Assembly (NCBI GenBank): GCA_036172245.1
Contig: JAYWIR010000044.1
Location: forward strand, 1,674,001-1,707,368
DNA from: Raillietiella orientalis
Taxonomy: Eukaryota
DNA length: 33,368 bases
Reading direction: 5' to 3'
Of this stretch, positions 4,681 to 32,151 are shown piece by piece. How positions within the stretch are numbered: position 1 is the stretch's first letter; each line of letters opens with the position of its first letter. The position numbers were made by a program, and so were the translations under genes. The notes below the pieces were generated by a model that was given only the letters and a program-made list of their open reading frames with translations, did no database searches and had not been told where the DNA came from.

Positions 4681-5140
4681 TCAGCCTGCCCCGGAGTCCT
4701 TTCAATGCTTTGCGGCAAAGCTGGCCCCACTGCAGCTGTAGGTGACCAGGCTGATCTGAGACGGAGGCGACTTCCCCGCCTCGTTTCGGTTAGAAAGAGT
4801 GAGGCTCCTCCCGGAGGGAGTAGACCTGAGACCACTCAGCAATTGGCGTCCGATCACAATTCTAAACACGGACACCAAGCTGATCGCTGGGCTGTGGGCT
4901 TCGCGTTTAGAACAGGTTGCAGACTGCATAATTAGCCCGGAGCAGACATACCCTGTTACCGGGAAGTATGGATGCCATCCTGTTCTTCGCAAGCATATGG
5001 TTCCATGTGCAGACCAGTCCTAACGAAACAGAGACCAGGATTGGCAATCCCACTTTTAGGCCGCCAGCCGGGCTGAAAAGAGACACCGGGGCTGGGAAGG
5101 GGGCCATAGGGATCACAGTCGATCTCTACAAGGAGTTCGA
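4681..5140 (+). pseudogene. N-terminal half of a LINE RT (C/D-like), ending exactly at the DLxKxFD motif
   Basis: VRLLPEGVDLRPLSNWRPITILNTDTKL...ISPEQTY (4799..5023), then GAIGITVDLYKEFD encoded by gtcgatctctacaaggagttcga (5118-5140). The family B 3' end follows immediately. Confidence 0.85.
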
Positions 5141-6860
5141 TTTTCACTCGGATTTCGCCGGAACGTCTATTAAAACAACAAACTTTTACAAAGACGTCCA
5201 GTGGCTGGATCAGTGCTTCAGCCACACACGAAGAAACACAGAGCCTGCCGGGTCAGCGTTTCGAACATAGGTACGGCCCACAACGGCAGAAGGGGGAAGG
5301 GACAAAAACCAAAAACAAAACAAAAAGAAAAGAAAAAGTGGGAGGGTAAGCGAAGGGATCACAGTTGCTGCAGGGGCCGTTGCATCCTTTGCAGGATGCC
5401 AACAAGCACTTTCTGTATTGCTGGATCCAGGTGGAACCATCTTGATGCTCTCCACATGAATTAAGAGGCTGGCTGGATGGCACCCTCATCGCGTGGAACT
5501 CTCGTAGCCTTATTTCAGGCGGCGACGATCCCTCGTAGGCAGCACAGGGCTGCTAACGAGGCCGCAGGCCGAAGTGCGTCGGCAATGAAGGGAGCTTTTA
5601 GAGTGGCCTTGGGGTTGCCGCAAGGGATGCCGATGGACGGGGCAAAGCGGAACCAAAGGAACCGAAATTCAATACAATCCACCAGCAGGTGGGGGAGGGA
5701 CTCCCGTTCCCCACACCTGACGCAATTGGCGTCCACCGCACTCAGGTCCAGTGATGTCGGCGGGCGTTGCAGGGAAGTATCCAGTGCTGCAAAAGCAGAG
5801 CCAACTCTTGCCATTTTAAAAAAAGGGTGGAAGTGTTCATGAGCACCGGGAGCCGCTTCAGACGTTCAAGAGAAACGTCGAGCAGACCGCCCTAGCGCAG
5901 AAGTCCATTAGGAGGCGTACTCGGGGTGGCAGCGTTAGTCAGCAGAATTGTCTTCCACTCTCCTATCTTCTGCTCCCTTCCGGAGATTTTTTATTCTGAC
6001 CTCCCTATTCGCCGCAATATCGGTGTACTAATCTTCCATTAGTAAGTCCAGCGCAGCGGCGAAAGGGGTTCTTGCTGACAACGCTCGCTTCTTTGGATCC
6101 TCCAGGATCTCACGGAGCGTGCAACTTCTATAACCTCCAAATAGGAACCTTCGTTCCTGTTGGGAGCGTTGCATGCCGAACTGTCCCCACGTACGAACGG
6201 TTTCCTGCAACCAGGCACTACCGTTCGCTGGGAGACAGGTGATCCGTCTTTGGTTTTCTCGTGTCAGTAAAGCCACCCTCCGTAGCTGCAGTCCACATCT
6301 GTTGACGCGGCAGCGGAGTGCAAGAAAGGTCGTGAGTCCCGTCTTGACGGTGGCATGCTGAAGTAGGTGACGTGCAGAGACGCAGCACCAGGTGCACCAC
6401 AACTCCGGCACCACGGCCATCAAACGGAACTGGAGCTAAATCTCCAGCCGCTCCAACGTCAGGAAACCGAGACCGCCGTCCCAAAGCGGAACTTACAAGT
6501 CCTTTAAGCGGAAACGCACCCTCCCGCTGCCCCAAAGAACAATAAGAAGGAGGACCTTCGTCCGCTTTTTTATCCTCTCTCTGGTGGGCAAACAAAATGC
6601 TCGGGGCGGAGAAGAGGAGCCGCGAACGTATTCCAAATCACGACCCGTTCAGGCAGCAGATACCCGCCGACTCGGAACGGGCCGATCGCCGTCTCTACTT
6701 TTTGGAGGGAACAGGTGCTCGTCAAGAAACACGTGGTCGATGCTGTCTTCTATCTCCGGTGCACTGGCCAACAAATTACAGGTGTGCACCGCCATGCACA
6801 CCTCGTTGACGAGGTCACGCTCGTCATTCTGCCCATCTGTATTCAGGCGAACGTTGAAAT
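5141..6860 (-). mobile_element. Family B copy B1: 3' UTR, ORF2 C-terminus and an APE fragment, with an internal deletion of ~1.6 kb
   Basis: Collinear with B4 25690-27256, then jumps at ~6706 to the B4 28862-29017 sequence (IDHVFLDEHL, FNVRL). Zinc finger CVRCGERESLPHLLVDC in 5515..5814. Confidence 0.9.
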
Positions 6861-9825
6861 TTTTTACCCGGTCACGCTGGGACGTTTATTGATATAAACG
6901 AGCTGGAAACAGTTGTTTCCAGCCCACAACTATTCAAACATACAGCGAAGATTCAACACTGGCACGCAGAGCAGGAAAACGGAAGAACATGGACTACTGA
7001 GGGGAGTCCAAAAAAAAAATGTAAATGGGAGGAGTGAGCCAGGGAGCTTTAATGACGCTCCGTAGACTCAAAGAAACTGAAAAGTTTTAGCACCAAAAGC
7101 ACTGCGGAGCGTATAAAGAGAAGGACGCAAGAACAAAAAAAAAAATCAATTAAAAAGAAAATGAAGGCGGATCACTGGCTCCGTCGTTCTAAGCCGTTGC
7201 TTATCCGGCGATGGATACCGGTTAGCTCCTCCGTTGTGTCTTCCTATAAGTGTCGTCACCCAGCTGCCGATCTGATGAAGTCAGCTGCCTTCCTGGTAAC
7301 ACAACATTGCTGTCCAGTGTCCTCCAGCACGTCTCGGACCGCGACGATGGCGTGGATGTAGCCAACAGTGGAAATCGTAACAGCCCTCGAAAGTGCTTGT
7401 GGCTGGAAGAACCTTCGCAGCACTTCAAAGGTGGTGTCCTCCGGTGGCAGGATAGCTGCTGCTAACAATCTTCAGAGTTCCTGGAGGGCAACACAGTCCA
7501 TAACAAGGTGCGGGAACGACTCCGTCGCCCCGCACCGAGCACAGTAGGGAGAAGCCACCCCACCTGAAACTCGGTAACGCCACTCGTTTTTGCGCAAGCT
7601 TCAGTGCAAGAAGAGCAAGACGTCTTGCTTCCAAGCAAGGGGAAACACCGAACCTTCCAAACACCAAGGAGGGATTGCAAGTTCCTCGGGGGCAACACAT
7701 ACAGCTTCCCCTCACCGAAGTAATCCCTTTGGTGTTGCACGAGGAGTGTCGGCATCCGCAAGCTCGCTCATGGGCCATTCGCCAACTGGTTTTGTTCCTT
7801 CTTGAATGGTGCAGGAGAACTCCCACTTTGCCAGCTGGCTACTCTCATCTCGATGCACGAATGCAGACAGTTCTTCGGCGAGGGGCGTGGCGGCCAGGGA
7901 GGAAAAGTTCATTCCGTTGTGCATGACATGTTGGAGGTACCAAGGTTGAAATCGACGCAGGGGGCGGAATTCTTCACGGCTCATTCCTAAGGATACAGCC
8001 CAAGAATCAATGCATTCCTGCCTCCAGCCATTGTAGTTCATAGGGCAGCAGAAAATCCACGCATTGGCTTCAAATAAAAAGGCGATTTGCCTCAGAGGAT
8101 AGCCAAATCCCTGTTTCCTGTGACACATGCCAGGCACCAAGTCCTTCACTGCCTGCACACCTTCTAAGGAGGATGCGTGCAAGCGCACACAAGGAGGAAG
8201 TCCATAGCTCCGCACACAGTGCGACCATCCGCAACTGAATTTGCAGTCCGATTCTCTCCATCGTAAGGATGCCAAAACCAGCATCCTAGAGTGGAGCCGC
8301 CAGATCTTTCTGACGGATCCTTGATCGCGCCGGACCCCAGAGTACGTTCTTTAGCAGGCGTTTTGCCCGCTCTTTGGCCGCATAGCGGGGGGCCAAGACA
8401 AAAAAGGGACGGTTAAATGAGGAGGGCAACGGAGGTGTTTCAAATAGTTGCCCGTTCCCGCAAGCTGAAATTGCCGTTAGTGAACGGACTGGCTGCCAAA
8501 TCCGCCTTATGAAGAAGGCAGTCCGACCACGCCTCGGAAGAACCGAGGTCGCCGAGCGTAACTCCAAGGTACTTGAAATACCCTGCCGTGGGGATCCCCA
8601 GGCGAATCCAGTCGGACTGTCTCTATCACGACGCTCCTACAGGTACGACCACGCTCTTCCGGTTCACACTCACGTCCGCTACCCGAAGAACCAGTTCGAA
8701 GCAATTTTCGACACTGGTCGCCGGGCTGGACATGGGGAGCAGAAGAAGCAGGTAGTCTGCATAGGGACCCACGGCAGGCGTACCCGGGGAAGAGCTAGGA
8801 ACGTACTCCAGCGTCAGCCTGTACGCCCTCAGCACCAGCTCGAAGAAGATGCTGAAGAGCAGCTTGCTTAAGCTGTCACCCTGTCTGATGCCCCTGCGCC
8901 CAGGAATACCGTACACCTGGCAGCCGCTAAAAAAAATGCAGGTTAGCGCATGGCGCCAGCAAGCGCGTAAGTACTTTAGGAGATGCGCTGGGAGACCCAG
9001 GCGTTCCAGGCGCTCTAATAAGAGCCCTTAGTTCACGCAATCGAACGCCTTGTGCAGGCCGACTGCGACCGCGAAGGCACCAGGAGTACCCTCCTGCTGC
9101 TTCTGTCGATACCGTGTGCCTTTGGCAGCGGCCTTGGACACGGATCGGCTTTGCTGCGCTACACGCTGCTGCAGCTGCATCCAGGTGCGGGCAAACAGGA
9201 GGTTTGCGTCCATGGACCGCCCGCGAACAGCGTAAGTCTGCTCCGGGCTTACCAAGGACTGCGCGTTTCTCCTTAGCCGCAAAACCCACAGCTTAGAGAA
9301 AAACTTGACGTCCAAATTCACCAGAATGATCGGACGCCAGTTGTTGAGATGGCGTGCGTCTCCACCTTTCGGCAGGAGACGCACGCTCGCTGAACGGAAA
9401 AAATTGAGAACATCCCCCGAGAACCTTATCAGAGAGGAGATGCTGAGCACCAGAGGGACGAGTTCTGCCGAGAAGCTCTGATAAAACAACGCCAGTAGCC
9501 CGTCCTTACCTGGTGCTTTTCGTCTCTTGAATCCAGCGATAGCGGAGGAAATTTCCTCTGCCGCGAAGGACTCGTCGAGACATGCGCGCTCCTCTTGGAT
9601 AACAACGGGAGCAGCCTGGGAAAGAAGTATCTCCGAAAAGATATCTGTAGGCGCTTCCGCGTATAGCGGAAAGTAATGACCCCTCACGATGTGGCGAATA
9701 CCGTCTGGATCCACAGCCAACGACCGACGTGTATTCGAAGCGCTCCGTCAAGAGAAGGGTTCCTTTGTATTCTGTCGTGTGCTTTCGCGGCTGTTGACGG
9801 GCAGCGATGTCTGGAAACGCGGCCG
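6861..9825 (-). mobile_element. Family E copy: LINE ORF2 (RT to C-terminal zinc finger) plus 3' UTR; 5' part absent
   Basis: KAPGKDG, LLPKGGD, NWRPI and LHKAFD (9028..9720); GIRQGDSLSKLLF and PYADYLL (8626..8916); CARCGATESFPHLVMDC at ~7490-7545; 3' end aataaacgtcccagcgtgaccgggtaaaaa at 6861-6890. The 5' boundary is approximate. Confidence 0.88.
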
Positions 9826-10003
9826 TTAGAGGCAAGGGAGGCAGAAAACTCCGCCTTCCAAGTCTGCTGAGGTGGGGTCTCGCCTTACCACCCAATCGAA
9901 CCCCGCCGCCCCGGCGAGGGAATGGAGCGCGGTGGCTGCGGCCAAAATGCCGGACGTCGCCGCGGAAATTGCGGCCTACATACAGGAGGGCTATAAATCC
10001 GCC

Positions 10004-10017
10004 CTCCTGTACAAGGT
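10004..10017 (+). repeat. Left copy of the 14-bp target-site duplication ctcctgtacaaggt flanking D1
   Basis: Identical 14-mer at 11237-11250. Removing D1 and one copy restores ORF1 LLYKVGNL. Confidence 0.93.
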
Positions 10018-11236
10018 TTTTCACCCGGGTAAGCCGGGGCTTTTATTACTAAAATTCTGACATTACAAAATTTTGTAACAAAGTCTATGTTGTTAAAATT
10101 TTTCTGTTTACGACGTCAGAAGTTCAGATCAGAAGTTCAGTAGCACTTGTCCTTACCGACCCGGAGGTCGATAAGGTCCTTCACTGGCGCCGGGACGGGA
10201 AAAATAAAACAAAACAAAAACAAAAAAAGAAAAACGTCTGGAGGGCAAAGTTTTCTAGGAAGGGGGAGGGAGGGAGGGGATCACGGTGCGCCGTGAGCAG
10301 GCCTTTGCATCCGGTTTCGGATGCGAACAAGTGCTGGCAAATGTTTTTGAAGTCGGCGCCAACGGCACGCTTTCTCCAAGGAGATCGCTGCCCAGTGGAT
10401 GGCATTCCGGCTGGTCCTTCCTCTCCTAGACGCGGTCCACTTCTCCAGGATACCGCGTATGCAGCAGAGCACTGCTACGCTCCCGGAGGCTGGCAAGCCG
10501 TCTCGCGTCAGAAGGCCTCTAAATAGATTTTTAGGGTCACCCTCCGGAATGTTGAGGATCGACGAGAGTCTGTCCCGCATTTCGTGAAGGGCAACACACT
10601 CCAGAATAAAGTGGAAGAAGGTCTCCCTTTCCCCGCACTCTGCACAACTAGCATCCACATTCCCCGATGTCCAGCGAGACAGGCGTGCTCTGCTTAAAAG
10701 TCCCCAGTGGAGCAGAAGCAACGCCGTCTCCTTCCACTGCAGGGGAAGGGTGCCGTTGTCCCATGACGCTGGGGGCCACTTCACCTCCTTCGGAGGTATA
10801 CCGAGCAGCGCGCCCCAGCGTAAAAGTCCGTTCGGCGGGACACTCGGGGTACTAGCGTCCGCTAGTTCCCTCGGCGTCCACGCCTTCAGTGATTTTTTCC
10901 TTCCTCCGATGAGGCAGGACACTTCCCACGATGCCTGTTGGTGGCTGTCCCGAACTTCCCTGAGGGAGGGCAGCACTGGGGCAAGGGGGGTGAAGGAAGC
11001 CCACAGAAGTTTCCGTGGGTTGGAAACGATCTCCTGGAGTGGCTGACCAGCGTGGCTCCCTCTGCGGAGGCAGAAGTCCTCATCGCTGGTGCCATTGATC
11101 TTCGCCCATGCGGATACGGACTCCTGAAGCCAGGTAGAACAGTCCGCAGGGATGCAGGAGATCCAAGGGTTGTCTCTCATCAGAGCAACCAAATCCCGCA
11201 GCTGATAACCACAATGGTTCAGGCTGCGTTCGTTGG
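10018..11236 (-). mobile_element. Family D copy D1: 5'-truncated LINE (ORF2 C-terminus + 3' UTR) with TSD
   Basis: Open 303-aa frame 10281..11192 with CAECGERETFFHFILEC. 3' end aataaaagccccggcttacccgggtgaaaa. Near-identical inverted copy at ~17643-18867. Confidence 0.93.
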
Positions 11237-11250
11237 CTCCTGTACAAGGT
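11237..11250 (+). repeat. Right copy of the 14-bp TSD ctcctgtacaaggt
   Basis: Identical to 10004-10017. The first 2 nt (ct) are also shared with the element sequence. Confidence 0.93.
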
Positions 11251-11782
11251 AGGCAATTTAGTTTCGCCTTTCCGCGCGCGAAAATTTGGGATTGCCATCC
11301 TTAGGATAAGCATTAAGGAAGAGGGGATTGCGTGCCTCTCCGTGCGCAGCGGCAGGCAGTTTGCCGAGTTAATCTGCAAAGATGCAGCTCTGACTCACAA
11401 ACTGCTCTGCACGCCTGTGCAGATGGAGGGTCGTAACATCGTTTTCTATACGGTGAAACGTTCAATTGTGATCCACCTAACGGAAACAACGGTGCGAATG
11501 GACGATACGTCCATTCGCGCCGGAATTGGAAAATATGCAGCGATTTATGCCAAGTGGCGGAAGCCGAACACTTTCGGTATTAGGACTGCCTTTAGCGGGC
11601 GCGTCACCGCACGCGTGACCCGTCGCGAGGGGTGCGAACTTCCCCACAAACTCCAGATAGGCACCGAGTTTGTAGAAGTATGGTATGTGGGGAAGCCGAA
11701 GTTTTGCCTCATATGTAAGACGTTCGGGCATCTCAAAAAGAGATGCCCGGACGCATTATGCCCCACGTGCGGCGCTAAGGGG

Positions 11783-14700
11783 TAGGTGGGGGTGTTCATG
11801 AGCACCGGGGGCCACTTTAATTGTTCCCGCGAAGCATTTAGCAGCTCGCCCCAGCGCAAAAGTCCAATAGGGTTGGTAATCCGGGCCGCAGTATCGCAGA
11901 GAATTCCCGTTTTCAATTCCCCGATCTTTTTCTCCGAACCGGAGATTTTAACATAAACATCCCATTTCGCAGCAGTGTTGCCGTTTAAATGTTCCGCGAG
12001 CGAAAACAGCATGGCAGCAAGGGGAGTTTTTCTTGCCCAAGCTCGTTTTTGGGGGTTCTCCAGGAACTCCCGGAGCAATCAGGCGGTCATTACGGGCGAA
12101 GAACTGTCTCTGCTCTGCTTGAGTGGGTTGCTGGTAGCTCCTTGCCCACGTCTGAACCGTTTCCTGCAGCCATGCTGGTCCGCCACCGGGGCGACAGCAG
12201 AGCCATCCTGCGTTCTTCCTCATCAGGTCAAACAACTAGCCGCAACTGCAACCCAAAGTGACCGACTTGGCGGCGACGACGGAGGGCAAGGAAGGATGAC
12301 AGTCCCTCCTTGCCTGTAGCCTGCACGACGAGGAGATGTGCGGGCTCGCACCAACTGCTATTCCGATATTACGTCACTAGGGTGAGTACCCGAAACTGGA
12401 GCTGGAGCTCCAGCTGCTCTAGCGTCAGGTGTACGAGACCGCCGTTTCGACGTGGAGCGCTCAAGTCCTCAAGGCGGACTCGGGCCCTCCCATTACCCCA
12501 CAGGGCAATCTTTACGAGGTACTTCGTCCGCTTTTTAGTTTCTGTGGTGGGGGGAAAAACAAAAAGCAGGGAACGGAGGAGAAGCGCCGCGAATGCGTTC
12601 CACACCGCGGCCCGTTCCGGCAGGAAAAACCTGCAGCCTTCGAACGGCCCGATCGCCGTCTCTAGCTTTTGAAAGCAGCTGGACCACGTATCCGAAGGGA
12701 GATAATCACCCATCGGTACACCGAGGTACGTGATGTACCGTACCGTGGGGATCCCCATTGGACCCAGTCCGCCTGCCCTGCCCAAGCCGCACCGACTGGC
12801 ATGACGGACGACTTCGCCCTGTTTACCTCAAGCCCGGTTCTCCGATGCAGCATGTCGAAGAACTCCTCGACCGCCGATGCCGGGGTGGAAATAGGGAGCA
12901 GCAGCAGTAAGTCGTTTGCATATGGTGACACCGCGGGCGCACCAGGATAGTCGCGCGGCAGGTGCGCTAGACTTTCCCTGTACGCTCTGAGTACCAACTC
13001 GAAGTAGGTACTGAAGAGCAAGGTACTCAGGCTGTCTCCCTGCCGTATGCCGCGTGGCACCGGCACGCCGTGCAGGGTCTGCCCGCTGAAAGGAACGCTG
13101 TTGAGCGCGTCGCGCTAGCATGAGCGCAGATAGGCCACTAATGAGGCCGGGAAGCCCAAGTGTTCCAGAAGCTCCAGAAGGAGATTTGGTTCGACGGAAT
13201 CGAATGCTTTGCGCAAGTCGATTGCGGCCGCAAGTGCTCCTACTCCCTTCCGACCATCCGACCCCTTGCCGGCGCACGCACCGGAATTCTGGCTGCGAAC
13301 CAAGCTTCTTTCTTGCTGGAGTTCTAGCCAGGTCAAAGCGTGAAACAGGTGCGCCTCCATGCTTCGCCCAGGAATACCATATGTCTGTTCCGGGCTGATG
13401 AAGATGTTGGCAACCCGTCCCAACCTCTCCGTACAAACCCTTGCTAGCTACTTAGCGTCCGCATTCACTATTGTGATGGGACGCCAGTTGTTCATGCACC
13501 TCAGATTTCCTACCTTAGGGAGGGGCCGCACCTTTGCCTAACGAAACGAGGCGGGAACGTTACCTGTCTCGCGTATCAGCAAGGTGAGTTGCTGTACCAA
13601 GGGGGTAAGCTCAGCCGCGAAAGTTTGGTAGAACTCCGCGGGAAGGCCGTCCTCCCCTGGAGCCTTGCGCCTCTTTGCTTTCCGATGGCCGAGAGGGTCT
13701 CGTCCATCGTGAAAGGCTCGTCTAGGGTTTTTCTCTCCTCCTCCCCGAGCGCTCGAGCGCCTTCCGGAAGCAGAAGTCGTGAGACGTTCCTTTTCGGAGG
13801 TGCCCTGGCATACATGAAGGAGTAGTAACTCCGCAGCAGGCCGCGGATTTGGGCGGGTGCCGTGTGCTCCTGGCCCTGTTCGTCCAGCAAGCTGACCGAT
13901 CCGGACGGCCAGGCTTGCCTCTCAGTTCTTGCTTTGTATTCCGCCAGTCTGCGGATGTCGGGGTTTTCGGCGTAACAACGGGCCTGCAGGTAAACGCGTT
14001 CATTACGGACCCCGGTCCCAAAACCCGTGGGTAGGCGGAGCAGAGGGAACTGGTCGCAGAACTCCTGGACCGATGCTTGAAGCGGTCCCAATCCTGGAGT
14101 TTCCGCAGCCTGAAGCTCCGTATGAACGTGCGGAGATGTTACGTTGCGTCCGGGAGCTTCAGCCAATCCCCTAAGAGACGCCACGCTGACGAGGGGGAAC
14201 ACCTGTCGCGCGGATGGATCTCGAAGCCTAGCGGACGAGGGTCGAACAGCTCGCACGGTAACTTGCCGCGCCTGCCCACACGAGTGCACAGGTGCTCGTC
14301 AAGGAACACGTGATCGATGTTGTGCTCCATCCCTGGTACACTGGCCAACAGATTACAAGTATGCACCGCCGCGCACACCTCGTTGACCAGGTCACGCTCG
14401 TTATTCGGCCCAGCCGGTTTCAGACGAACGTTAAAATCGCCTGCAACCAGATGGGCATTCCGCACGCCTGCCTTGGTCAACCAGTCGCGATGGAGGGCAA
14501 AGGCAAATTCTTTCCTGGCCCTCCTGTTCGTCAGGTGCGCTCCGCTCGAGGCGTAAACGTTCGTAACGATCAAGTCGATCGAGTCGGACCAGCTGAGAGT
14601 CAGTTGACCGACACTACCGTGATCGTCGAACCGAACTCCACGGGCGGCGGCCTCGATGGCGGGCCGATGCAGGTAGGCGACACCACAACTTCTCGATGTT

Positions 14701-14903
14701 GCACACCGATACCACAGCCGCCTTCCGTAGATGCGTTCGATCTCCTGCGCTTGTTCTGCAGAGATCACATGGATCTCCTGCAGCAGCACAAGGTCGAACG
14801 ATCCTAGAATGGCCACCATGTCTCGTCTCCTGCCGCCGTCTGTCATGCTGTTCACGTTCCAAATGGCGATGCGCAGAGGACGGCGGGAGGAGATTCCCGG
14901 CAT
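11783..14903 (-). pseudogene. B2 ORF2: APE endonuclease + reverse transcriptase, frameshifted
   Basis: IWNVNS, LQEIH, VTNVYA, AGDFNV and IDHVF (14139..14903); IDLRKAFD (13115..13423); GIRQGDSLSTLLF and PYANDLL (12662..13066); YLGVP (12369..12785). Confidence 0.92.
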
Positions 14904-14905
14904 TA
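14901..14905 (-). promoter_or_regulatory. TAATG overlapping ORF1 stop / ORF2 start (B2)
   Basis: catta on the + strand; both ORFs share base 14903 in the ORF track. Confidence 0.85.
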
Positions 14906-16617: not shown

Positions 16618-16711
16618 TGCTGCCAGATCGACCACCACCACAGACGAAGCCTACACCTAGGGACGGTTCCCGGCACGAGGAGCACCGAGGAAACACGTCC
16701 GCTCTAGCCGA

Positions 16712-20694: not shown

Positions 20695-20699
20695 TAATG
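20695..20699 (+). promoter_or_regulatory. TAATG overlapping ORF1 stop / ORF2 start (C)
   Basis: ORF 20029..20697 ends in TAA that overlaps an ATG. APE motif CWNVNAL lies ~50 nt downstream, now one frameshift away. Confidence 0.7.
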
Positions 20700-23600
20700 T
20701 CCGCAGCAGTGCTGCGTGTACTCGCTCCGCTCGTGGCGTCAGCGTGGCCTGTTGGAATGTGAACGCGCTACGTGATGCTGACAAAAGGCGAACGGTAGCC
20801 AACGCTTTGCGTGCGTTCGATCTGGTGCTGCTGCGGGAGATACATAGCATCTTCGACCTGCAGGCATCGGATTTGGAGGAGAGCCCGGGCGGGACGCTAC
20901 ACTGGCGGCAAGGCTCCGCGCACACGTGCGGAGTCGCGTTTCTCGTCCGAGTCAGGGTGGCGGAGGCGTTGCGGAACGTTTGTTTCCACCAGGAAGGTCG
21001 TGTGGGCCAACCTGTCCTCAAGTGGTCCGAATCGATCGACCTGGTCGTTACGAACATCTACGCGCCGAGCGGCGGCCGGCATTACGCCCAGCGACTTGCA
21101 TTCCTGGGTGGCCTGCGCACCCACTGACTCCCTGACTCCGGCGCTAACGTGGCGCACCTCCTTGCAGTAGACTTCAACGTCCACCTGCTAACAGAGGAGA
21201 GATGCGGCTTGAGGGAGAAGCAGCTGGTGAGCGAGGTATGCGCGTCCGTGCGCGTGCAAAACTTGCTTGCTGGTGAGCCCGGGATGGAGGGATCGCGGGA
21301 CCATGCATTCCTCGATGAACACCTGCTCTCATGAGTAGGTCGGAGAGGGCGCCTGCTGTCCTCGATTTCGGATCATCCGAGACTGGAGTTCGAGCTCCTC
21401 CTGCCTGGCAAAGGGCCTTTGATAAATGTCTGGAGGCTGGCGGCCGACTGGCTTAGAAATTCGGAGGCGGCGGGGCATCTCCGCCAACACCTCCGGGGCT
21501 TAGCCATCTGTGACCTCGAGGACTGGGACGATCTGAAAAGATCGGTCCGCGAGTTCTGCTGCCGGTTTCCCTTGCACCTGCTTCCCCGCGGCTTCGGGGA
21601 GGGTGTCGCCAACAGCAGATCCTATCTGCAGGCGCGTGCCTTTTCAAGATGCCCGGACGTCCGGCGTCTGGCGGAGTATAAGGCCAGGGCCGAGCGCCAG
21701 GTTTGGCAGTCTGGAGCGGCTTGTCTGCTCTATGACGCTGGTTAGGAATGCTCGGCTGCAGGCGAAGTACACCGCGTAGTCAAGCGCTACTACTGCTCGT
21801 TGTACGCGGAGGAGACCACGGAACGCAGTTTCTCCGAGCTGCTTCTTCCGACGGGTAACCCTGCTATCGACGAGGAGGAACGCGCCAGATTGGATTAACC
21901 CTTCACGGCGGAAGAAGTATTTACCTCCATAGCAAGCCTGAATAAACGTAAGGCGCCAGAGAAGGATGGGCTGCCTGCGGAGTTCTTTCAGTGCTTCGCG
22001 GCGGAGCTCGTCCTCCTGGTGCTAAGCCTTTCCTCGCTGTTCGGTAAGACGGGAGATGTTCCCGCTTCTTTCCGCTCAGCAAAGGTGCGGCTCCAGCCGA
22101 AAGACGGGGATTTGAGTCACCTCAGCTACTGGCGTCCGATCAACTTGGTGAAATCGGACGTCAAGCTGTTCTCAAAGCTATGGGCTTCGCGCCTGGGGAG
22201 AATCGCGGAGTTCTTGGTAAGTCCGGAGCAGTCGACCGCAGTTCCGGGGTGGTTCATGGACGCGAATCTCTTCTTCGCGCGAACATGGTTCGAGTTGCAG
22301 CAGCGTGTGGCGTAGCAGAGCCACGCAGCCGAAATCGCCTCTGCCAAAGGTAAGCGGCGGTGTTCAAGGCACGATGGAACGCCGGGAGCCTTAGCGGCCG
22401 CCGTCGATCTCTGCAAAGCTTTCGACAGCGTAAACCAGGAGCTTCTTCTAGAGCTTGTTCGACGCCTAGGCCTTCCGACGCAACTCATCGCCTACTTGCG
22501 CTCCTGCTGGCGCCACGCGTTATGATTTATCTCTTTCAGCGGGCGCCAAATGTACGGAATTCCAATACGGCGGGATATCGTACATGGAGACAGCTTATGC
22601 CCCTGCTTTTCAGCATCTTCTTTGAGTTGGTGCTGAGGGCGTACAGGATGACTCTAGCTAACCTGCCGAGCTCCTGCCCGGGAACACCGACCGTGGCCCC
22701 CTATGCTAACGACGTTCGCCTGCTGCTGCCCATGTCCACCCCGGCATCTAGGCTCGAGGACTTCTTAAAGCTCATTCGTCGGGGAGCGGGCCCCAGCGTC
22801 AACACGATGAAATTAACCGTTGCCCCGGTTGGTTCTACGTGAGAGGGGCAGTCCGAATGGATCTGCCTGGGGATCCCCACAGGCAGGTGCTTGAAGTACC
22901 TCGGCGTTCCCTTGGGCGCCTTCTTTCCAGCAGAAGCGTGGTCGAACTGCCTTCACAAGGCAGAGACTGCTCTGAGCCCGTTCCAAGGCGGCAGGTTTCT
23001 CCTGTCGGAACGCGCCTTTGTGTGGAACATTTGCGTTGCCTCCCTCCTCAGTCCTTTCTTTTTGGTTTGTCCCCCTCCCTGCTCGGCTAAGCGCCGGGTG
23101 CAACGCCTGTTGCGTAACACCCTGTGGGGACCGGCGAGGTCCAGGATACGCCTGAAGGACCTGGCGCCTCCTCGGCGGGATGCAGGATTGGGCATCCTGA
23201 CGCTGGAGCGGATCGGACTGCTAGTGCAGTTCCGCATGCTGGCACTTTGTGCGCAGCTCTGGACAACTCCCTGTTGTGCTCCAGCGCGGCTGCTGCTGCG
23301 GCGCTGCACGGGTGGCGACGGACTACGTTCGTTGCATCTGCGCACGGAGCGCGCCCAGAGAGGATTCGGCTTCCCTTTGAAGCAGGTCGCCACGCTTCTG
23401 GGAAAGCATGAGTGGATCTCCTGCCGGCCGACGAACTTCAACGCCTGGAGGCAAGAAGCCTTATCGTCCTGGGCAGCGGAACAGGATGTGTCCCGTTTAG
23501 AACTCCGTTGCGTGAAACTTTCCCATACAGTCCAGTGGGGGAGGTGCTGGAAGACCAGCACCAGTGTACACGCCTAGCCGCTACGCCACTCGCCGAAGCA

Positions 23601-24281
23601 CTGTGTGCACTGATGGTGCGAGATGACACTGACCTGCCTGCGAGGTGGGAGATCACTTGCGAAATCGCAGGCGAAACCCGACTGCTGAACGGCTGGCGGA
23701 CTTGCGAAGTGGCAGACTCTGCCACACCTCGCATTCTCGCAAAGGGGCTTCTCCGGTGGAGTGAGCTCCTCGGGGTGCCGACCGATGAACTTGTGGTCCC
23801 TTCTGCGTGTTTGGACGCGACTCTCTTCCGCCTTCGGTGGAAACAGGACGCTTTTATGCTGGTGCATTGGGGGTTGTACTGCAACCAGCGGGCGAACCTG
23901 ATTTCCGAATAAGTTGCTTCCCCGATCTGTGACCAATGCAAAGCGGTGGAATCGCTTCCTCATTTGCTGTTTGAGTGCGGTGCCCTTTAGGATCTGTGGC
24001 GGCGGTAGTCTTCAGCGCTCCTGCACCTCGGACACACCGCACTCGATTGAATGCGCCGCTTTCACACGCGTGGCAGTCTTTCTCATGGAGCGGTCTTCGC
24101 AATCATCTGCAGCGTTCGCGCCATTTTCAGGGCCCGCCACGTATTGCAGATGCGAGCAGTCCTAACATCGGTCCCCGCTACCGCACCCTGCAAACTGCAA
24201 ATGGCAGCCGGGTGGCCACACCTGGGAGCAGAAGTGAGGACGGAGATCGGCGGCGTTTACCGCCGGTTCTCAGAACAGTAA
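20697..24281 (+). pseudogene. C ORF2: APE + RT + zinc finger, many stops and frameshifts
   Basis: CWNVNAL, LREIH, VTNIYAP, VDFNV, DHAFLD, YWRPI, VDLCKAFD (22403-22426), PYANDV, KYLGVP and CDQCKAVESLPHLLFEC (~23928-23978). Confidence 0.9.
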
Positions 24282-24479
24282 CGGCTAAACTGTATACCCC
24301 TATCCCCGCCCTCCTTCCTAATTGATTTATTTATTGTCCCATCCCCTCCTGTTCCGAACTCTTTGTGTACCCGGCTCGCGCTCCGGGAAATCTACTCCCC
24401 ATTCTCTGTTCCCCTTCCCTGGGTACACAGTTCGCATTTGATATTATGAATAAACGTCTCGCCGCAACCGGGTATTAAA

Positions 24480-25675
24480 CGACATCGCCGCATTCTTCTA
24501 TTTGCTCGCTTGCCTGCTGTTTTTTCTGGCGGTACGCGAGATTTTTTTCTGATCTCCTCACCTTCTTTGGTTTTTTGGCCGTTGCCAATTGACACCCATT
24601 CTCCTGGTCGGCTCCCTCAACTTTTTCGGTGTTGGTAGTCAAAGTCTCGGATGCGGCCTGGATCATGGGCGCGGATGGCACAGCCTTCGCGGCAGCTTTC
24701 GCCGCCATCCTTTTCTGCAGAAGCGGGACGCGTTTTTCAAGGTTTCTCTATGGAAACCACCCGCACTGTTGCTTTAGGGCACACCTCTTTCGTGTGACCT
24801 ATTCTGCCGCATACTTGGCACTGAACGTTGAGACACCTCTTTTTGAGGTGGCCCGACGTGTTGCAGAAGACGCAATATTTCGGATTCCCCACATACCAGA
24901 GGTCGACGGTTTTGCCTTCGACCACCAGTTTGTGGAAAAGAGTGCAGCTCTTCTGAACAATGAAGCGCGCATCCGTGAATCCGTGTTGAAGCCCCGTGTA
25001 GTCCTCGAAAGGACTAACTTTCGTCCACTGCGCGTGGACCGTTCCAAATTGTTCGAGCGCGGCGCGAACCTGTTCTCTGAGCATTCCGTGGTTGCGCCTG
25101 ACAGGTGGACCACAATGCTACGGTCCGCCGTAGTGGGGTGGTGCCGGCGCGTCCCCATCACAACGGGAGTTTTAAGCAGTCGTTGGTCCAGGTCTGCTTG
25201 TTTGCAGATGACCTCAACGTACTGACCCTCACTGCGGATGGTCATAGAGCTGACCTCCTACACTTTCACATCGAGAGCGCGCAAGTTCTTCGAGAAGGCG
25301 CGCGCTCTCTCTAAAGAATAAAGGTAGCCAACCTTGTAGAATAATGAGGAAATGTACCCCTCCTCTACACAGGCCGAGAATTCCGCCGCGGCTGCTGGCG
25401 ATGGCGCCGACACAACCGCGTTCCACGACCGCCCTGCAACGGGGATTGATTCTGTGAGGGCGGATGCTTCCACCTATATCGCCTCTTGGAGCGACGTTGC
25501 CGACGCCCCCTGGCTCTCCATCGCCTCTGGGGGCAGCATTTCCGCTGCCCCCTGGCCATCCCAGGTGGTCGCGTCAGGCATCGCTGCCAGATCGACCACC
25601 AAACCACACGACATTTGCACTGAGGGAGACTTCCTCGCGCGAGGAGCACCGCGAAAACACGTCCACCTTGGAGCA
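24480..25675 (-). mobile_element. Family B copy B3: 5' end and ORF1 N-terminal two-thirds
   Basis: ATG at 25581 (MPDATT), SSLFYKVG and intact double knuckle CVFCNTSGHLKKRC..CQVCGRIGHTKEVC (24737..25084). Ends at the C 3' end. Confidence 0.92.
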
Positions 25676-25689
25676 GTCAAGGCGTTCGA
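25676..25689 (+). repeat. 14-bp target remnant gtcaaggcgttcga between B3 and B4
   Basis: Lies between the B3 5' end and the B4 3' tail; 12/14 identical to 31261-31274; reads V-K-A-F-D on the + strand. Confidence 0.85.
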
Positions 25690-25907
25690 TTTTTACCGGG
25701 ATTTCGCCTGGGCATTTGATGTAAAATAAACTTTTACAAAGACGTGCGGTGGCTGGACCATTGCTCCAGCCACGCACGAAGAAACACAGAGCCTACCGGG
25801 TCACCGGTTTGCGGACCGGTACGGTCCATCACGGCAGCAGGAGTAAGGGGGAGAAACAAAAAACAGAACAAAAAAGAAAAGAAAAGTTGGGAGGGTAAGG
25901 GAAGGGA

Positions 25908-28900
25908 TCACAGTTGCTGGTGCGGCAGTTGCATCCTTTTCAGGATGCCGGCAAGCTCCTTCTGTATTCCTGGATACAGGTAGGGCAATCGGGACGTTCT
26001 CCTCAGGAACTGGGAGGCTGGCTGGATGGCACCCTGGTCGCGATGTCCTCCCGTAGCCTTGCTCCAGGCGGTGACGATCCCGCGTAGGCAGCCCAATCCT
26101 GCTGACGAGGCCGCTGGCCGAAAAGCGTCGGAAACGAAGAGGGCTTTCGGTGCGTCCCTGGGTTGCCGCAGGGGATTCTGATGGCCGCAGCAAAGCGAAA
26201 CCAAAGGGGCCAAAGGGCAACACAATCCACTAGCAGGTGGGGTAGGGACTCCCGCTCCTCACACCTAACGCAATTGGGGTCCACCGCTCCCCAGGTCCAG
26301 TGGTGTCGGCGGGCGTTGCAGAAGAGTAACCAGTGCTGCAACAGGAGAGCCGAGTCCTGCCATTTCAAGGGAAGGGCGGAAGTGTTCATGAACACCGCTG
26401 GCCACTTCAGATGTTCAATAAGAACATCGAGCAGCGCGCCCCAGCGCAGAAGTCCATTAAGAGGCGTACTCGGTGTCCCAGCGTCTGTTAACTGGCCCGT
26501 CTTCCACTCTCCTATCTTCTTCTCCTCTCCGGAGATTCTTACTGTAACCACCCACTTCGCCGCAACATCGCTATCCAGATGTTCCATCAGGAAGGGCAGC
26601 GCAGCAGCAAGGGGAGTTATTCCTGCCCACGATCTCTTCTTTGGATCCTCCAGGATCTCGCGAAGCGTGCAATTTCTGTAACCCCCAAACAGGAAACTTC
26701 GTTCCTGTTGAAAGCATTGCATGCCGAACTGTCCTTACGTTCGAACGGTTTCCTGCAACCAGGCACTACCGTTCAAAGGGCGACAGGTGAGCAATCCTGG
26801 GTTTTTGCGATGCAGCGCAGCCACCCTCCGTGGATGGAGTCCGAATCGCTTGACGCGGCGACGGAGTGCAAGTAACGACGTCAGTCCCGTCTTGCCGGTG
26901 GGTTGCTGGAGAAGAAGACGTGCAGAGATGCACCAACAGGTGCATCACAACTCTGGAGCGAGTGCAGACAATCGGAACTAGAGCAGAAGCTCCAGCCGCT
27001 CCAACGTCAGGAGGCCCAGACCACCATCCCGACGAGGAGCGCACAAGTCCTTTAAGCGGACTCGGGCCCTCCCGTTGCCCCAAATGTCGATACGGAGGAG
27101 GTTCTTCGTCCGCTTTTCGATCCTCTATGTGGGGGGCCAAACAAAAAGCAGGGAGCGGAGGAGAGGAGCCGCAAACGTGTTCCAAACCGCGGCCCGTTCA
27201 GGCAGGAAAAACCTGCCGCCTCGGAAAGGGCCGATTGCCGTCTCCACTTTTTGGAGACAGCCGGTCCACGCTTCCGCAGGGGGGCAGTCCCCCAAAGGCA
27301 CACCAAGGTACTTGAAGTACCTCACCGTGGGGATCCCCAAACGGACACAGTTCTGCTGCCCTGCCCACGCCGCACCAACTGGCATCACTGACGATTTCTC
27401 CCTGTTCATCGTAAGCTCAGTTCTTCGATTCAGAAGTTCTAAGAACTTCTCGACCGCCGCAGCCGGGGTGGACATAGGAAACAGCAGCAAAAGGTCGTCC
27501 GGTTATGCTGAAATGGCCGCCGTACCGGCACAGTCGTGCGGCAGGTGCGCCAGAGTTCCCCTGTACGCTGTCAGTACCAACTCAAAGTGGGTACTGAAGA
27601 GCAAGGGGCTCAGGCTGTCTCCCTTGTGGATCAAACGCCGCACCGGTACGCCGTGCACGGTCTGCCCGCTGAAAGTAACATTGATGAGCGCGTTGCGCCA
27701 GCAGGAGCGCAGATAGGCAACTAATGAGGCCGGGAAGCCCAAGCGTTCCAGAAGCTCCAGAAGGAAATTCTGGTCGACATAATCGAATGCTTTTCGCAAG
27801 TCGATTGCGACCGCAAGGGCTCCCTCCCCCATCACTCCAACCCCTTGCGGGCGCACGCACTGGGATTCCGGCTGCGCACCAAGCTCCTTTCATGTTGGAG
27901 CTATAGCCAGGTGGAAGCGTGAAACAGGTTCGCCTCCATGCTTCGCCCGGGAACAGCATATGTCTGTTCCGGGCTGAAGAAGATGTTGGCAACCCGTCCC
28001 AGACGCTCTGCCCAAACCTTAGCCAGCAACTTGGCGTCCGCATTCACTATTGTGATGGGACGGCAGTTGTTCGTGCTCCTCAGATCTCCTCCCTTAGGGA
28101 GCAGCCGCACCTTTGCCGAACGAAACGAAGCGGGAACGTCACCTGTTTCGCGTATCAGCAAAGTGAGTTGCTGTACCAGGGGGGTAAGCCTTCCCGCGAA
28201 AGCTTGATAAAACTCCGCGGGCAGGCCGTACTCCCCTGGAGCCTTTCGCCTCTTGAGCTTTCCGATGGCCGAGAGGATCTCGTCCATCGTGAAAGGCTCG
28301 TCGAGGGTTTTCTCTGCTCCTTCCCGATCGCTGGAGCGCCTTCCGGAAGCAGGAGTCGTGAGACGTTCCTCTCCGGAGGTGCCCTGGAATACAGGGAGGA
28401 ATAGTAATCCCGCAGCAGGCCGCAAATTTGGGCAGGTGCCGAGGGCTCCTGGCCCTGATCGTCCAGTAAGCTGGCCGATCCGAACTGCCAGGCTTGCCTC
28501 TCGGCTCCCGCTTTGTATTTCGCCAGCCTGCGGAAGTCGGAAGACCTGGTGTAACGACGGGCCTGCAGGTAGGCTCGTTCGTTACGGACCCCGGTCCCAA
28601 AACCCGTAGGTAGGCGGTGCAGAGGGAACTCGTCGCAGAAATCATGGACTGACCGCTTGAAGCGGTCCCAATCCTGGAGTGTCCGCAGCCTGAAACTCCG
28701 CATGAACGTGCGGAGATGTTCCGCCGCGACCGGGAGCTTCAGCCAGTTTTCTGGGAGACGCCACGCTGACGAGGGGGGGCCCCTGTCGCGCGGTTGAATC
28801 TCGAGGACTAGCGGGAGATGGTCGGACAGCTCGCACGGTAACTTGCCGCGCCTGCCCACGCGAGGGCACAGGTGCTCGTCAAGAAACACGTGGTCAATGC

Positions 28901-29483
28901 TGTCTTCCATCCCCGGTGCACTGGCCAACAAATTACAGGTGTGCACCGCAATGCACACCTTGTTGACCAGGTCACGCTCGGGATTCTGCCCATCTGGTTT
29001 CAGGCGAACGTTGAAATCGCCTGCAACCAGATGGGCATTCCGCACGCCTGCTTCGGTCAGCCAGTCTCGCCGGAGGGCAAGGAAAAACTCTTTCCTCGCC
29101 CTCCTCTTCATTAGGTCTTTGCCGCTCGGTGAGCACACGTTCGTGACGATCAGATCGATCGAGTCGGACCACCTGAGAGTCAGCTCGCCGACACGACCGT
29201 GATCGTCGAACCGCACACCCCGTGCCGCGGCCTCGACGGCTGGACGAAGCAGGTAGGCGACACCGCAACTTTCCGCTCTCCCACACCTGTACCATAGCCG
29301 CCCTCCGGAGATCCGTTTCATTTCTTGCGCTTCTTCTGCAGAGATCACGTGGATCTCCTGCAGCAGCGCAAGGTCGTAGCACTCCAGAAGGGCGGCCATG
29401 TCTCGTCTCCTGCCGGCGTCTGTCATGCCGTTCACGTTCCAAACGGCGATGCGCAGACGACGGCGGGAGGAGATTCTTTGCAT
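25908..29483 (-). pseudogene. B4 ORF2: APE + RT + zinc finger, frameshifted
   Basis: VWNVNG, LQEIH, AGDFNV, IDHVF and SDH (28155..29483); KAPGEYG, LLPKGGD and CRPI (27901..28425); IDLRKAFD and GDSLSPLLF (27503..27856); catalytic site decayed to A*PDD; CVRCEERESLPHLLVDC (26003..26722). Confidence 0.93.
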
Positions 29484-29485
29484 TA
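29481..29485 (-). promoter_or_regulatory. TAATG overlapping ORF1 stop / ORF2 start (B4)
   Basis: catta on the + strand; ORFs 29483..29698 and 28155..29483 share base 29483. Confidence 0.85.
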
Positions 29486-31166
29486 CTGCTGGGAAGATTG
29501 AGGTGTGGGGGAGCCCTCCTCTTGCGAGGCAGGCGGGATGTCCATGGGGGTTTCGGCCTTCTCAGGCACCTGAGACACCTGTTCGGCCTCCACCCCCTCC
29601 ATCCCCTCCATCTCCTCCGTGTCAGTGCGTGAGAGTCTCGCGGGCGACGGGTCCCGAGAGTTTCCCACGCTCATGGCACCCTCGCTTGCGGAAGCCATCT
29701 CTTCCCCTTCGACGGGAAGACGAGCTTCCTAGGCGTTGTGGACTTACGTACAGCCTTCTTGCACGGTGCCGTGGAAACGGAGTCTGCGTATTCGGCCTCC
29801 ACCTCGGGGTCGGAAGTGGGGGACTCCTGAGGGGAGACCGGACGCCTTGAGGCCTTCTTGCCAGCCTTGGAGGGTTCTGGCTGCAACGAGGCTGCCAGCT
29901 CCTCCGCGGCTCGCGCGAAGGCTAAGTCATCGATGGTGGTGTGCATGACGGACGCCGCCGTCGGCTTGCTCCCCTAGCTGTTGCCAGAGTCAAGAGAGAA
30001 GAGGTCGTCGGTAGCGGCGAGTTCTTTCCGGCAGCGTTCGGCAACATCGAGAACGCGTTCGACAACGACGCTGCACTCTTTAATAATCGCGCTACCCTGC
30101 TCTTTCTGCTTCTGTTGGTAGTCGATTTTCTTTTCCATCCTCCTCTCCTTCTTTGATTTTTTTGCCGTTGCCACTTAGCACTCAGTCTCCTGACCGGCTC
30201 TCTCAACTTTTTCGGCGTTGGTCGCCGGGGTCTCGGGTGCGGCCTGGGTCTTGAGCGCGAGTGGCAAAGGTTTCGCGTCAGCTTCCGCCGCCAGCCTTTT
30301 CTGCAGAAGCCGGGCGCGTTTTTTAAGGTTTCTCTTGGAAACCACCCGCACTGCTGCTTTTGGCACACCTCGCTCGTGTGACCCATTGTGCCGCATACTT
30401 GGCACCACACATTGGGACACCTCTTTTTGAGGTGGCCCGACTTATTGCAGAAGCCACAGTGTTTCGGCTTCCCCACATACCAGAGGTCGACGGTTTCGCC
30501 TTCGACCACCAGTTTGTGGGGAAGAGTGCATCCCTCCCGTACGGTCACGCGCGCAGCAGTGAGGCCGTGTTGCAGATCCTTCTAGTCCTCGAAAGGACTG
30601 AATTTTGTCCACTGCGCGTGGACTGTTCCGTATTCCTCTCACGCCGCGCGAACCTGTTCTTTGCGCATGTGCGCGGTAACACCTAACAGGTGGACCACCA
30701 TGCTGCGGTCCGCCGTAATAGGGAGGAGCCTGCGCGTTTTCATCACTACCGGGGTTTTAAGCAGTCGTTGGGCCAGCTCTGCTTGTTTGCAGATGACCTC
30801 AAAGTACTGACCCCCGCTGCGGATGGTCATAGCGCTGAGCACCACCTCTTTCACATCGAGAGCGCGCATGCCCTTCGAGAAGGCGCGCCCGCTCTCTAAA
30901 GAATATAATTTGCCTACCTTGTAGAACAATCAGTGGTTGTACCCCTCCTCTACATAGGCCGACAATTCCGCCGCGGCTGCAGGCGATGGCGCGGATACAA
31001 TGGCGCTCGACGCCCGCGCTGCAGCGGGGACCGATTCTGTGGAAGCGGATGGCTGCACCTCCATCACCTCCGGGGGCGACGTTGTTGCCGCCCCCTGGCT
31101 CTCCATCGCCTCTGGGGCCGCCGTTGCCGCTGCTCCCTTGCCATCCCTGGTAATCGCGTCAGGCAT
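29483..31166 (-). pseudogene. B4 ORF1 with two CCHC zinc knuckles, frameshifted
   Basis: ATG at 31166 (MPDAIT), FYKVGKLYS and CGFCNKSGHLKKRC..CQVCGTMGHTSEVC (29922..30548). Confidence 0.92.
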
Positions 31167-31260
31167 CGCTGCCTGATCGACCACCGAACCACACGAGGCT
31201 TGCACTGGGGGAGACTTCCTCGAACGAGGAGCACCAAGATAACACGTGCACCCTGGAGCA

Positions 31261-31274
31261 CGCAAGGCGTTCGA
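31261..31274 (+). repeat. 14-bp target remnant cgcaaggcgttcga between B4 and B5
   Basis: Lies between the B4 5' end and the B5 3' tail; reads R-K-A-F-D on the + strand. Confidence 0.85.
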
Positions 31275-32151
31275 TTTTCACCCGGATTTCGCCGGAGCGT
31301 TTATTGTAAAATTAACTTTTACAAAGACGTGCGGTGGCTGGACCTTTGCTCCAGCCACGCACGAAGAAACACAGAGCCTGCCGGGTCACCGGTTCGCAGA
31401 CCGGTACGGTCCACCACGGGAGCAGGGGAAAGGGGGAAAAACAAAAAACAAAACAAAAAGAAAAGAAAAAGTTGGGAGGGTAAGGGAAGGGATCACAGTT
31501 ACAGGTGGGGCCGTTGCATCCTTTGCAAGATGCCGGGAAGCTCCTTCTGTATTCCTGGATCCAGCTGGGGCCATCGGGACGCCCTACTTAGGAACTGCGA
31601 GGCTGGCTGGATGGCACCCTGTTCGCGTTGTCCTTCCGTAGCCTTGCTGCAAGCGGTGACGATCCCGCGTAGGCAGCACAAAGCTGCTAACGAGGACGCT
31701 GGCCGAAGGGCGTCGGCAACGAAGAGGGCTTTCAGTGCGTCCCTTGGGTTGCCGCATGGGATTCCGATGGCCGCGGCAAAGAGAAACTAAAGGAGCCGAA
31801 GGGCAACACAATCCACTAGAAGGTGGGGGAGGGACTCCCGTTCCCCACACCTGACGCAATTGGGGTCCATCGCTCCCCAGGTCCAGTGGTGTCCACGGGC
31901 GTTGCAGGGGAGTCCCCAGTTCTGCAACAGGAGTGCCGAGTCCTGCTATTTTAAGGGGAGGGCGGAAGTGTTCATGAGCACCGGGGGCCACTTCAGATGT
32001 TCAATGGGAACATCGGGCAGCGCGCCCCAGCGCAGAAGTCCATTGGGAGGCGTACTCGGAGTCGCAGCGTCTGTTAGCTGGCCCGTCTTCCACTCTCCTA
32101 TCTTCTTCTCCTTTCCAGAGATTGTTACTGTAACCACCCACTTCGCCGCAA
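31275..32151 (-). mobile_element. Family B copy B5: 3' UTR and ORF2 C-terminus only
   Basis: Collinear with B4 25690-26565; similarity ends after cccacttcgccgcaa at 32151. Confidence 0.9.

Follow-up and report, generated by a model that had tools for sequence, protein, structure and literature searches.

A LINE family of Raillietiella orientalis whose preserved ends adjoin, in antisense, the reverse transcriptase motif-A codons of other LINEs

We analysed a window of 33,368 nucleotides of Raillietiella orientalis (GenBank assembly GCA_036172245.1, contig JAYWIR010000044.1, positions 1,674,001 to 1,707,368, forward strand), a eukaryotic graveyard of long interspersed nuclear elements (LINEs) made up of a dense nest of fragments. 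Its main subject here is one family, called B, the ends of which lie against codons for motif A of the reverse transcriptase (RT) of other LINEs. Among the 136 stop-to-stop frames of at least 100 amino acids, Pfam profiles (E<=0.01) gave eight matches to RVT_1, two to Exo_endo_phos and two to zf-RVT. The element map (Table 1) was drawn from a comparison of the window with itself and from tblastn searches in which the reading frames of B4, the one B copy of full length, served as queries.

The anatomy of B can be read directly from B4, which has a 5' untranslated region (UTR) of 94 nt, a first open reading frame (ORF1), an ORF2 with an apurinic/apyrimidinic-type endonuclease (APE) followed by the RT, and a 3' UTR with a pyrimidine tract, seen on the plus strand as an A-rich tract (25850-25905, 31424-31474). 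The element ends in a short hairpin, CCGG-CGAAAT-CCGG, and then GTGAAAA, without poly(A); in B4 itself the tail reads GTAAAAA. ORF2 of B4 matches Exo_endo_phos (1.3e-10) and RVT_1 (2.1e-07); B2 matches Exo_endo_phos in Pfam at 3.9e-12 and RVT_1 at 1.9e-05, the latter with 24.9 bits, under the Pfam cut-off of 29.6 bits. A hint of a CCHC knuckle in ORF1 of B3, not seen in B4, is weak (E=0.004, under the cut-off). Frames are broken in every B copy, and the ORFs of B4 are interrupted at several places; the family's own motif A, CGA/CGC AAA GCA TTC GA, is intact in B4 (27783-27793) and in B2.

With an N-terminal APE followed by the RT in ORF2, B has the make-up of an APE-type LINE. The closest solved structures are those of human LINE-1 ORF2p (RT 5.4e-18 and 9.2e-11, endonuclease 1e-3), and matches of the B RT and endonuclease to R2 are weaker or absent, in a comparison that covers solved structures and is not a phylogeny of clades. 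Because of this domain order and these best matches we class B, on its sequence, as a predicted autonomous APE LINE of the L1 superfamily, of about 5.57 kb. All its relatives are distant: of 1.8 billion representative proteins, 70 reached E<=1e-3 and none reached 1e-30. A protein search for longer forms with the B APE ORF as query gave no match, and an Atlas search gave generic APE clusters only. One protein of a public collection, P0004 (619 amino acids), has an uninterrupted RT that shares 64-75% identity with B4 and 58% with V, another LINE of the window, and it carries AVDLRKAFDCVDQELLLELLER; intact members of the LINE group of B thus exist elsewhere.

Table 1. Mapped features of the window, in order of position (position 1 is its first letter).
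Feature	Position	Strand	Remarks
X	2529-4678	+	Distant LINE
N-half	4667-5140 with T1 (4667-5126 without)	+	Short RT N-terminal piece of a 5'-truncated LINE
T1	5127-5140	+	tacaaggagttcga, Y-K-E-F-D; closes the N-half RT, then 3' tail of B1
B1	5141-6861	-	3' portion of B; its internal deletion corresponds to ~27265-28836 of B4; cut at 6861 by family C 3' end
C	~6862-9750	-	LINE family
Motif A of C	~9041-9051	-	Unoccupied perfect target in the RT, c-AAGGCGTTCGA
V2	10014-11238	-	LINE
B2	~11780-16711	-	B copy, apparently of another lineage; 5' end kept at 16711, last ~680 bp of 3' end lost
T2	16712-16725	+	tgtaaagctttcga, C-K-A-F-D; after B2 5' end, opens the V RT C-half
V	16712-18870 with T2 (16726-18870 without)	+	LINE; C-half of the RT, from motif A to the 3' end
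D	ORF2 20726-24020; 3' end 24480	+	LINE family
Motif A of D	22415-22425	+	Unoccupied, AAAGCTTTCGA
B3	24474-25675	-	5' portion of B with 5' UTR and ORF1; interrupted at ~24480 by family D 3' end
T3	25676-25689	+	gtcaaggcgttcga; between B3 5' end and B4 3' end
B4	25690-31260	-	Sole full-length B copy, 5571 bp; both ends from alignments
T4	31261-31274	+	cgcaaggcgttcga; between B4 5' end and B5 3' end
B5	31275-32152	-	3' part of B; B4 homology ends at 32152, then X-like LINE on the minus strand
X-like	32153-33368	-	Distant LINE

Three 3' ends of B (B1, B4 and B5) and three 5' ends (B2, B3 and B4) are preserved, and in alignments the B homology stops exactly at a 14-mer in each case. All six adjoin a word for x-K-A/E-F-D that lies on the plus strand, antisense to B. 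An earlier note on this DNA had placed four such 14-mers (T1 to T4) at every preserved B end, and had fixed the 5' ends by an ORF1 ATG 94 nt inside B2, B3 and B4; direct reading of the sequence and the alignment of the ends bear out all of this. In the array B3-T3-B4-T4-B5, tandem copies are separated by exactly one target word between each pair. The degenerate word AARGSNTTYGA occurs 8 times in the window where 0.80 are expected; this excess is mostly a matter of RT motif conservation, the part beyond chance being its coincidence with the ends of B.

On both surviving outer flanks the 14-mer is in frame and collinear with RT coding sequence, as had been claimed. To the left of T1 the plus strand reads ...PGSMDAILFFASIWF...GKGAIGITVDLYKEF-D, for which C, D, B2 and B4 have an alignable counterpart, and this N-half ends in ...ITVDLYKEFD at 5140, its KEFD falling exactly on the KAFD at residue 231 of P0004. 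It is 60% identical in amino acids to P0004 and 54% to B4, collinear up to motif A, and 58-61% identical to all the other families, distances that leave its family undecided. To the right of T2 the reading is CKAFDC, then after a 1-nt frameshift (V)DQEL, and after one in-frame stop ELLERLGFP; P0004 reads KAFDCVDQELLLELLERMGFP at the start of this C-half, and CVDQEL..LERLGFP is also found in P0004, B2, B4 and D. Thus the N-half with VDLYKEFD and the C-half with CKAFDC..LERLGFP that the earlier note described are both present, the second in a broken frame. The nucleotide homology of V to other RTs begins at 16712-16715; its C-half covers RVT_1 profile positions 101-204, with a hint of zf-RVT, and its 3' end is a hairpin followed by GTGAAAAACCT. 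The victims (the N-half, V, and a D-like contig described below) belong to families other than B, at 58-71% nucleotide identity.

One might suppose that the 14-mer is a redundancy at the terminus of the B RNA, its likeness to KAFD and to RT being coincidental; exactly one 14-mer between tandem copies would then also be expected. Alternatively, microhomology within the motif A of V itself might have joined a 5'-truncated V to B2; that LINEs become 5'-truncated through microhomology is well established. We regard both as very improbable. The 14-mer lies beyond the 3' end of B at the first junction and beyond the 5' end at the second, in frame with RT at both; T2 conforms over its whole length to the V/D type and not to that of T3/T4; and the sequence to the right of the V 3' end (18871 onward) is no RT C-half. 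The 3' ends of V, V2, C and D also have a terminal hairpin and an A-rich tail like that of B. They are followed by AGGATGGGAG... in V, by TGTACAGGAG... in V2, by APE codons of B1 in C and by the ORF1 region of B3 in D, so that the KAFD word comes after the 3' end in none of these four elements, as against all three of B.

The same junctions could reflect a looser preference, in which B favours the chromatin of LINE-rich, Zepp-like clusters and primes by microhomology at TTCGA (...AAAAUCGAA), KAFD being the commonest such word in a pile of LINEs. Where the B tail gives way to the 14-mer is indeed ambiguous by up to ~5 nt, TCGA being possibly templated, and the used targets vary upstream of TTCGA; moreover, LINEs nested in existing copies, with no motif defined, have been described for Zepp (PMC8226300, PMC3446292). 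Yet TTCGA occurs 79 times in the window, counting both strands, and every B junction lies in a motif-A context in the same orientation. A preference for 5 nt would therefore not explain the repeated use of motif-A copies, and three of the four 14-mers have the longer CAAGG(C/A)GTTCGA in common. We thus hold this explanation to be improbable.

A further question is whether these junctions go back to one insertion or to several. We assigned codon positions to B4 from its matches to distant families and counted the differences at each position, a test that was used in place of dN/dS estimated on tblastn pieces, whose values for the B copies (0.56-0.67) are too biased by alignment selection. Between B2 and B4, differences at positions 3, 1 and 2 amount to 20.2, 13.6 and 11.0% in the APE region (p=0.0012), 20.8, 13.5 and 11.2% in the RT region (p=0.0014) and 33.6, 29.4 and 21.5% in the C-terminal region (p=0.016). 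The pattern is flat between B1 and B4 (20.3, 22.1 and 17.4%, p=0.24), a neutral divergence of about 20% with which B1 looks old, and flat between B5 and B4 (9.4, 9.9 and 10.6%, p=0.9), a neutral pattern at about 10%. The third-position excess between B2 and B4 indicates that part of their divergence was laid down in active, selected lineages, and argues that the two are separate insertions from different active lineages. That at least two B lineages are involved is supported by this comparison.

The target words tell a similar story. T2 (TGT AAA GCT TTC GA) is identical at 13 of 14 positions to the motif of family D itself, and in the KAFD codons it differs from T3 and T4 at synonymous third positions only (AAA/AAG, GCT/GCG); T4 and T1 agree at 13 and 12 of 14 positions with the motif of family C. 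Because T2 matches the motif of D, and T4 and T1 that of C, the 14-mers look like natural motif alleles taken from different victims and not like sequence brought in by B. The adaptive story of the earlier note, in which B destroys a competitor through a target that the victim cannot easily mutate, finds no support here: T2, a synonymous variant, was still entered.

These data bear on a simpler history in which B has no specificity at all: one or a few chance insertions in a LINE RT would have been amplified in place, together with the target-site duplication (TSD), by unequal crossing-over or segmental duplication, and the products later scattered. In so dense a LINE nest, the insertion of LINE into LINE is expected by chance, and amplification of a unit of B and TSD would give the same internal junctions. 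The neutral pattern of the B4-B5 and B1-B4 divergences and the lack of a preserved outer flank in the B3-B4-B5 array are also in keeping with it, as is the fact that the N-half and the C-half stand in the order and orientation of one split victim. Against it, B2 and B4 diverged under purifying selection and hence are not in-situ duplicates; T2 is synonymous relative to T3/T4 and 13 of 14 identical to the D motif, and T1 agrees with T2 at no more than 9 of 14 positions. A contig from one public run (X1, containing 0.09 of the sampled words, compared at 80% likeness) also argues against it. At least 645 pieces of that run matched, 374 of them less than 90% alike, and the depth over B 5' regions was very low; stretches that the run leaves uncovered carry no weight as evidence. 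The contig follows B up to 26184, another 5' truncation point, then ACAAGCAAGGCGG, then a D-like RT from 22422 (TCGACAGCG..., TCGAC...); at the junction it reads x-K-A-V-D, followed by the RT C-half. Taken together, we consider in-place amplification unlikely. The depth of run X1 was very high on the A-rich tract (334 in the bin 25686-26351), which is a simple-sequence effect and not a copy number.

As to the two halves on the outer flanks, they are probably parts of different victims joined by deletion or rearrangement, because T1 and T2 agree at only 9 of 14 positions, B1 looks old and V is 95% identical to V2. A single old victim split by B, with T1 and T2 as its TSD, is unlikely; B1 looks old and B2 younger. 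Twin-priming inversion was considered as the origin of the B2/V junction and rejected, the parts overlapping by ~1.4 kb in element coordinates and being only ~70% identical.

We consider it fairly probable that B inserts site-specifically, in antisense and by target-primed reverse transcription, into the motif-A codons of other LINEs, with head-to-tail re-insertion. Several points weigh against this. All copies and junctions come from one 33-kb window, and the one junction from outside it is thin (a single contig with a depth of 2.7 and 34 letters on its shorter side) and gives a hint only. The locus is heavily rearranged, B2 being without its 3' end, B3 without its 3' part and B1 with an internal deletion, so that the independent events number at least two, the exact number being uncertain. 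Both outer flanks of the B3-B4-B5 array are gone, with D cutting B3 and the X-like element following B5, and, given a neutral B4-B5 divergence of ~10%, the array could be an in-situ duplication. No matched pair of TSDs is found, T1 and T2 sharing 9 of 14 positions; T3 and T4 share 12 of 14 and differ in the first 2 nt. The duplication is therefore 12-14 nt long at best, and the exact 14-nt TSD of the earlier note is not supported. The RT of family C carries a perfect target that is unoccupied. A scan of metagenomes with the invariant 20-mer of the B 3' end gave three loci, all of them chance matches of 20-22 nt, and the plus-strand ORF that joins KAFD to the antisense B tail, used as a proxy for a flank, had no match in the protein databases.

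The motif-A sites of D, B2 and B4 are likewise free of insertion. The motif of B itself is identical at 11 of 14 positions to the used allele T2, so no self-immunity is evident.

In the favoured reading, that of insertion into motif A, integration would proceed by target-primed reverse transcription into the DNA that encodes D-L-x-K-A-F-D in other LINE families, the target word being TCGAACGCCTTG-like. The sense strand of the victim would be nicked right after ...TTCGA, within the Asp codon, and its 3'-OH would prime cDNA synthesis on the tail of the B RNA. The victim's sense strand is taken as the primer on two grounds: B runs antisense to its victims, and on the plus strand the complement of the B 3' tail comes after the 14-mer; this geometry, which the earlier note had proposed, follows from the orientation of B, with the nick positions placed by inference. 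Priming may be assisted if TTCGA pairs with the end of a read-through RNA, ...AAAAUCGAA, and specificity could come either from the endonuclease or from this pairing. The other strand would then be cut ~12-14 nt upstream, duplicating the x-KAFD codons on both sides of B. Each insertion would thereby regenerate the target, later B copies could enter at the same site, and head-to-tail arrays with one 14-mer between copies may result. Of what the earlier note had put forward as a whole, antisense B ends at x-KAFD codons that continue into RT on both outer flanks stand as observed; that B behaves so as a family is carried by one window only.

Several other features of the nest were seen. The V2 element, a copy of V truncated at the 5' side, matches the V 3' part (17642-18870, plus strand) at 95.4% identity and lies inverted and 6.4 kb apart; because the homology ends exactly at the 3' end of the element, V and V2 either inserted separately or were homogenised by conversion. 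A fragment of B at 6679-6861 (minus strand; APE region, 93% identical to B4) joins B1 across the internal deletion of ~1.6 kb, which removed the motif A of B1. Another, at 19544-19727 (plus strand; linker between APE and RT, 84% identical to B4), stands alone between V and D. The family C 3' end (…CCGGGTAAAAAA; 6862-6900, minus strand) adjoins the B1 APE codons GDF|NVRL in the same orientation, and C therefore inserted into B1. The family D 3' end (…CGCCGCAACCGGGTATTAAA; 24440-24490, plus strand) adjoins the ORF1 region of B3 in antisense; the 3' part that B3 lacks was not found on the left side of D, which means that sequence was deleted or rearranged. At the two window ends, X and X-like lie in opposite orientation and are 74% identical in nucleotides over ~790 bp; X has TDMEKVSD at motif A, and the right-hand copy has its terminal hairpin, GTGGTTCAACCAC, exactly where the B5 homology stops. 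Positions 1-2400 have a lower GC content (0.44-0.47) and a strong excess of T (AT skew -0.27 in the first 2 kb), and their frames gave no Pfam match; the LINE cluster may have its edge here.

Site-specific LINEs have their homes in rRNA genes, snRNA genes, telomeres, microsatellites, DNA transposons and long terminal repeat (LTR) elements. Among the LINEs specific for rDNA and telomeres, R1, R2 and SART1/TRAS1, R2 uses a restriction-like endonuclease and not an APE. These elements would resemble B in homing to a conserved multicopy sequence, in precise 3' junctions without poly(A) and in a possible pairing of read-through RNA, but their targets are host genes or repeats, whereas that of B would be the catalytic motif of a mobile element.

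A closer likeness is offered by the Tx1 clade, as far as the available portion of the source goes (PMC4494074). Its targets include the piggyBac-type Tx1D for Tx1L, Mariner-N4_AMi for Tx1-Mar and a Harbinger for Tx1-9_AMi, and two families, Tx1-8_Crp and Tx1-4_AMi, insert into LTR retrotransposons (PMC4494074). Both Tx1 elements and B are APE-type LINEs, and Tx1 elements have, as B probably has, a short, defined target inside another multicopy mobile element; tandem copies around one TSD and a possible opposite orientation to the target are likewise known in Tx1 (PMC4494074). The Tx1 TSDs measure ~14-16 nt (PMC4494074), as against 12-14 nt at best in B. Kojima explained by sequential insertion the tandem copies of the Tx1-mobilised SINEU-3 that sandwich one TSD (PMC4494074). 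Going by the same portion, Tx1 elements enter a family-specific non-coding stretch, whereas the target of B would be other LINEs, in the codons of a catalytic RT motif across several families; and the likeness is one of target and arrays, the nearest solved relative of B being human L1 ORF2p.

The Zepp and ZeppL elements of green algae are LINEs of the L1 type whose insertions go into Zepp copies already present, according to the parts of the reports at hand (PMC8226300, PMC3446292). They share with B, by description and not by phylogeny, the L1 type, the insertion into LINE copies, the nested clusters and tandem arrays, and the GC-rich repeat islands. In these parts, Zepp is described with its own copies as target and arrays of 3' ends, and no defined target at the level of codons is reported (PMC8226300, PMC3446292). 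In contrast, full-length copies of B are separated by a fixed motif-A word, and other families are entered. The pattern of Zepp, own-family insertion in arrays mostly of 3' ends, is not what we found: the motifs of B2 and B4 are intact, the victims are of other families, and the B copies include one of full length and two 5' ends.

A LINE that targets the RT motif-A codons of other LINEs was not found described in the full-text literature, a search whose coverage excludes most subscription journals and Repbase Reports, and a prior description may exist there. If the favoured reading is true, the catalytic RT motif of other LINEs would be a new class of target for site-specific LINEs, one that is held constant by selection on the victims and is common to several families. 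A natural APE endonuclease, or RNA-guided priming, with a recognition of ~12 nt would also be of interest for tools of targeted insertion.

The lineage of B may quite plausibly be one of L1-type LINEs that recognise motif-A x-K-A-F-D DNA in antisense, a hyperparasite with the RT genes of other retrotransposons as its habitat. Such a target would be safe, self-renewing and available across families, and each RT entered would be knocked out, a direct case of interference between transposons. It would also provide a simple mechanism for nested clusters composed only of LINEs, and B alone would generate clusters like those at some algal centromeres.

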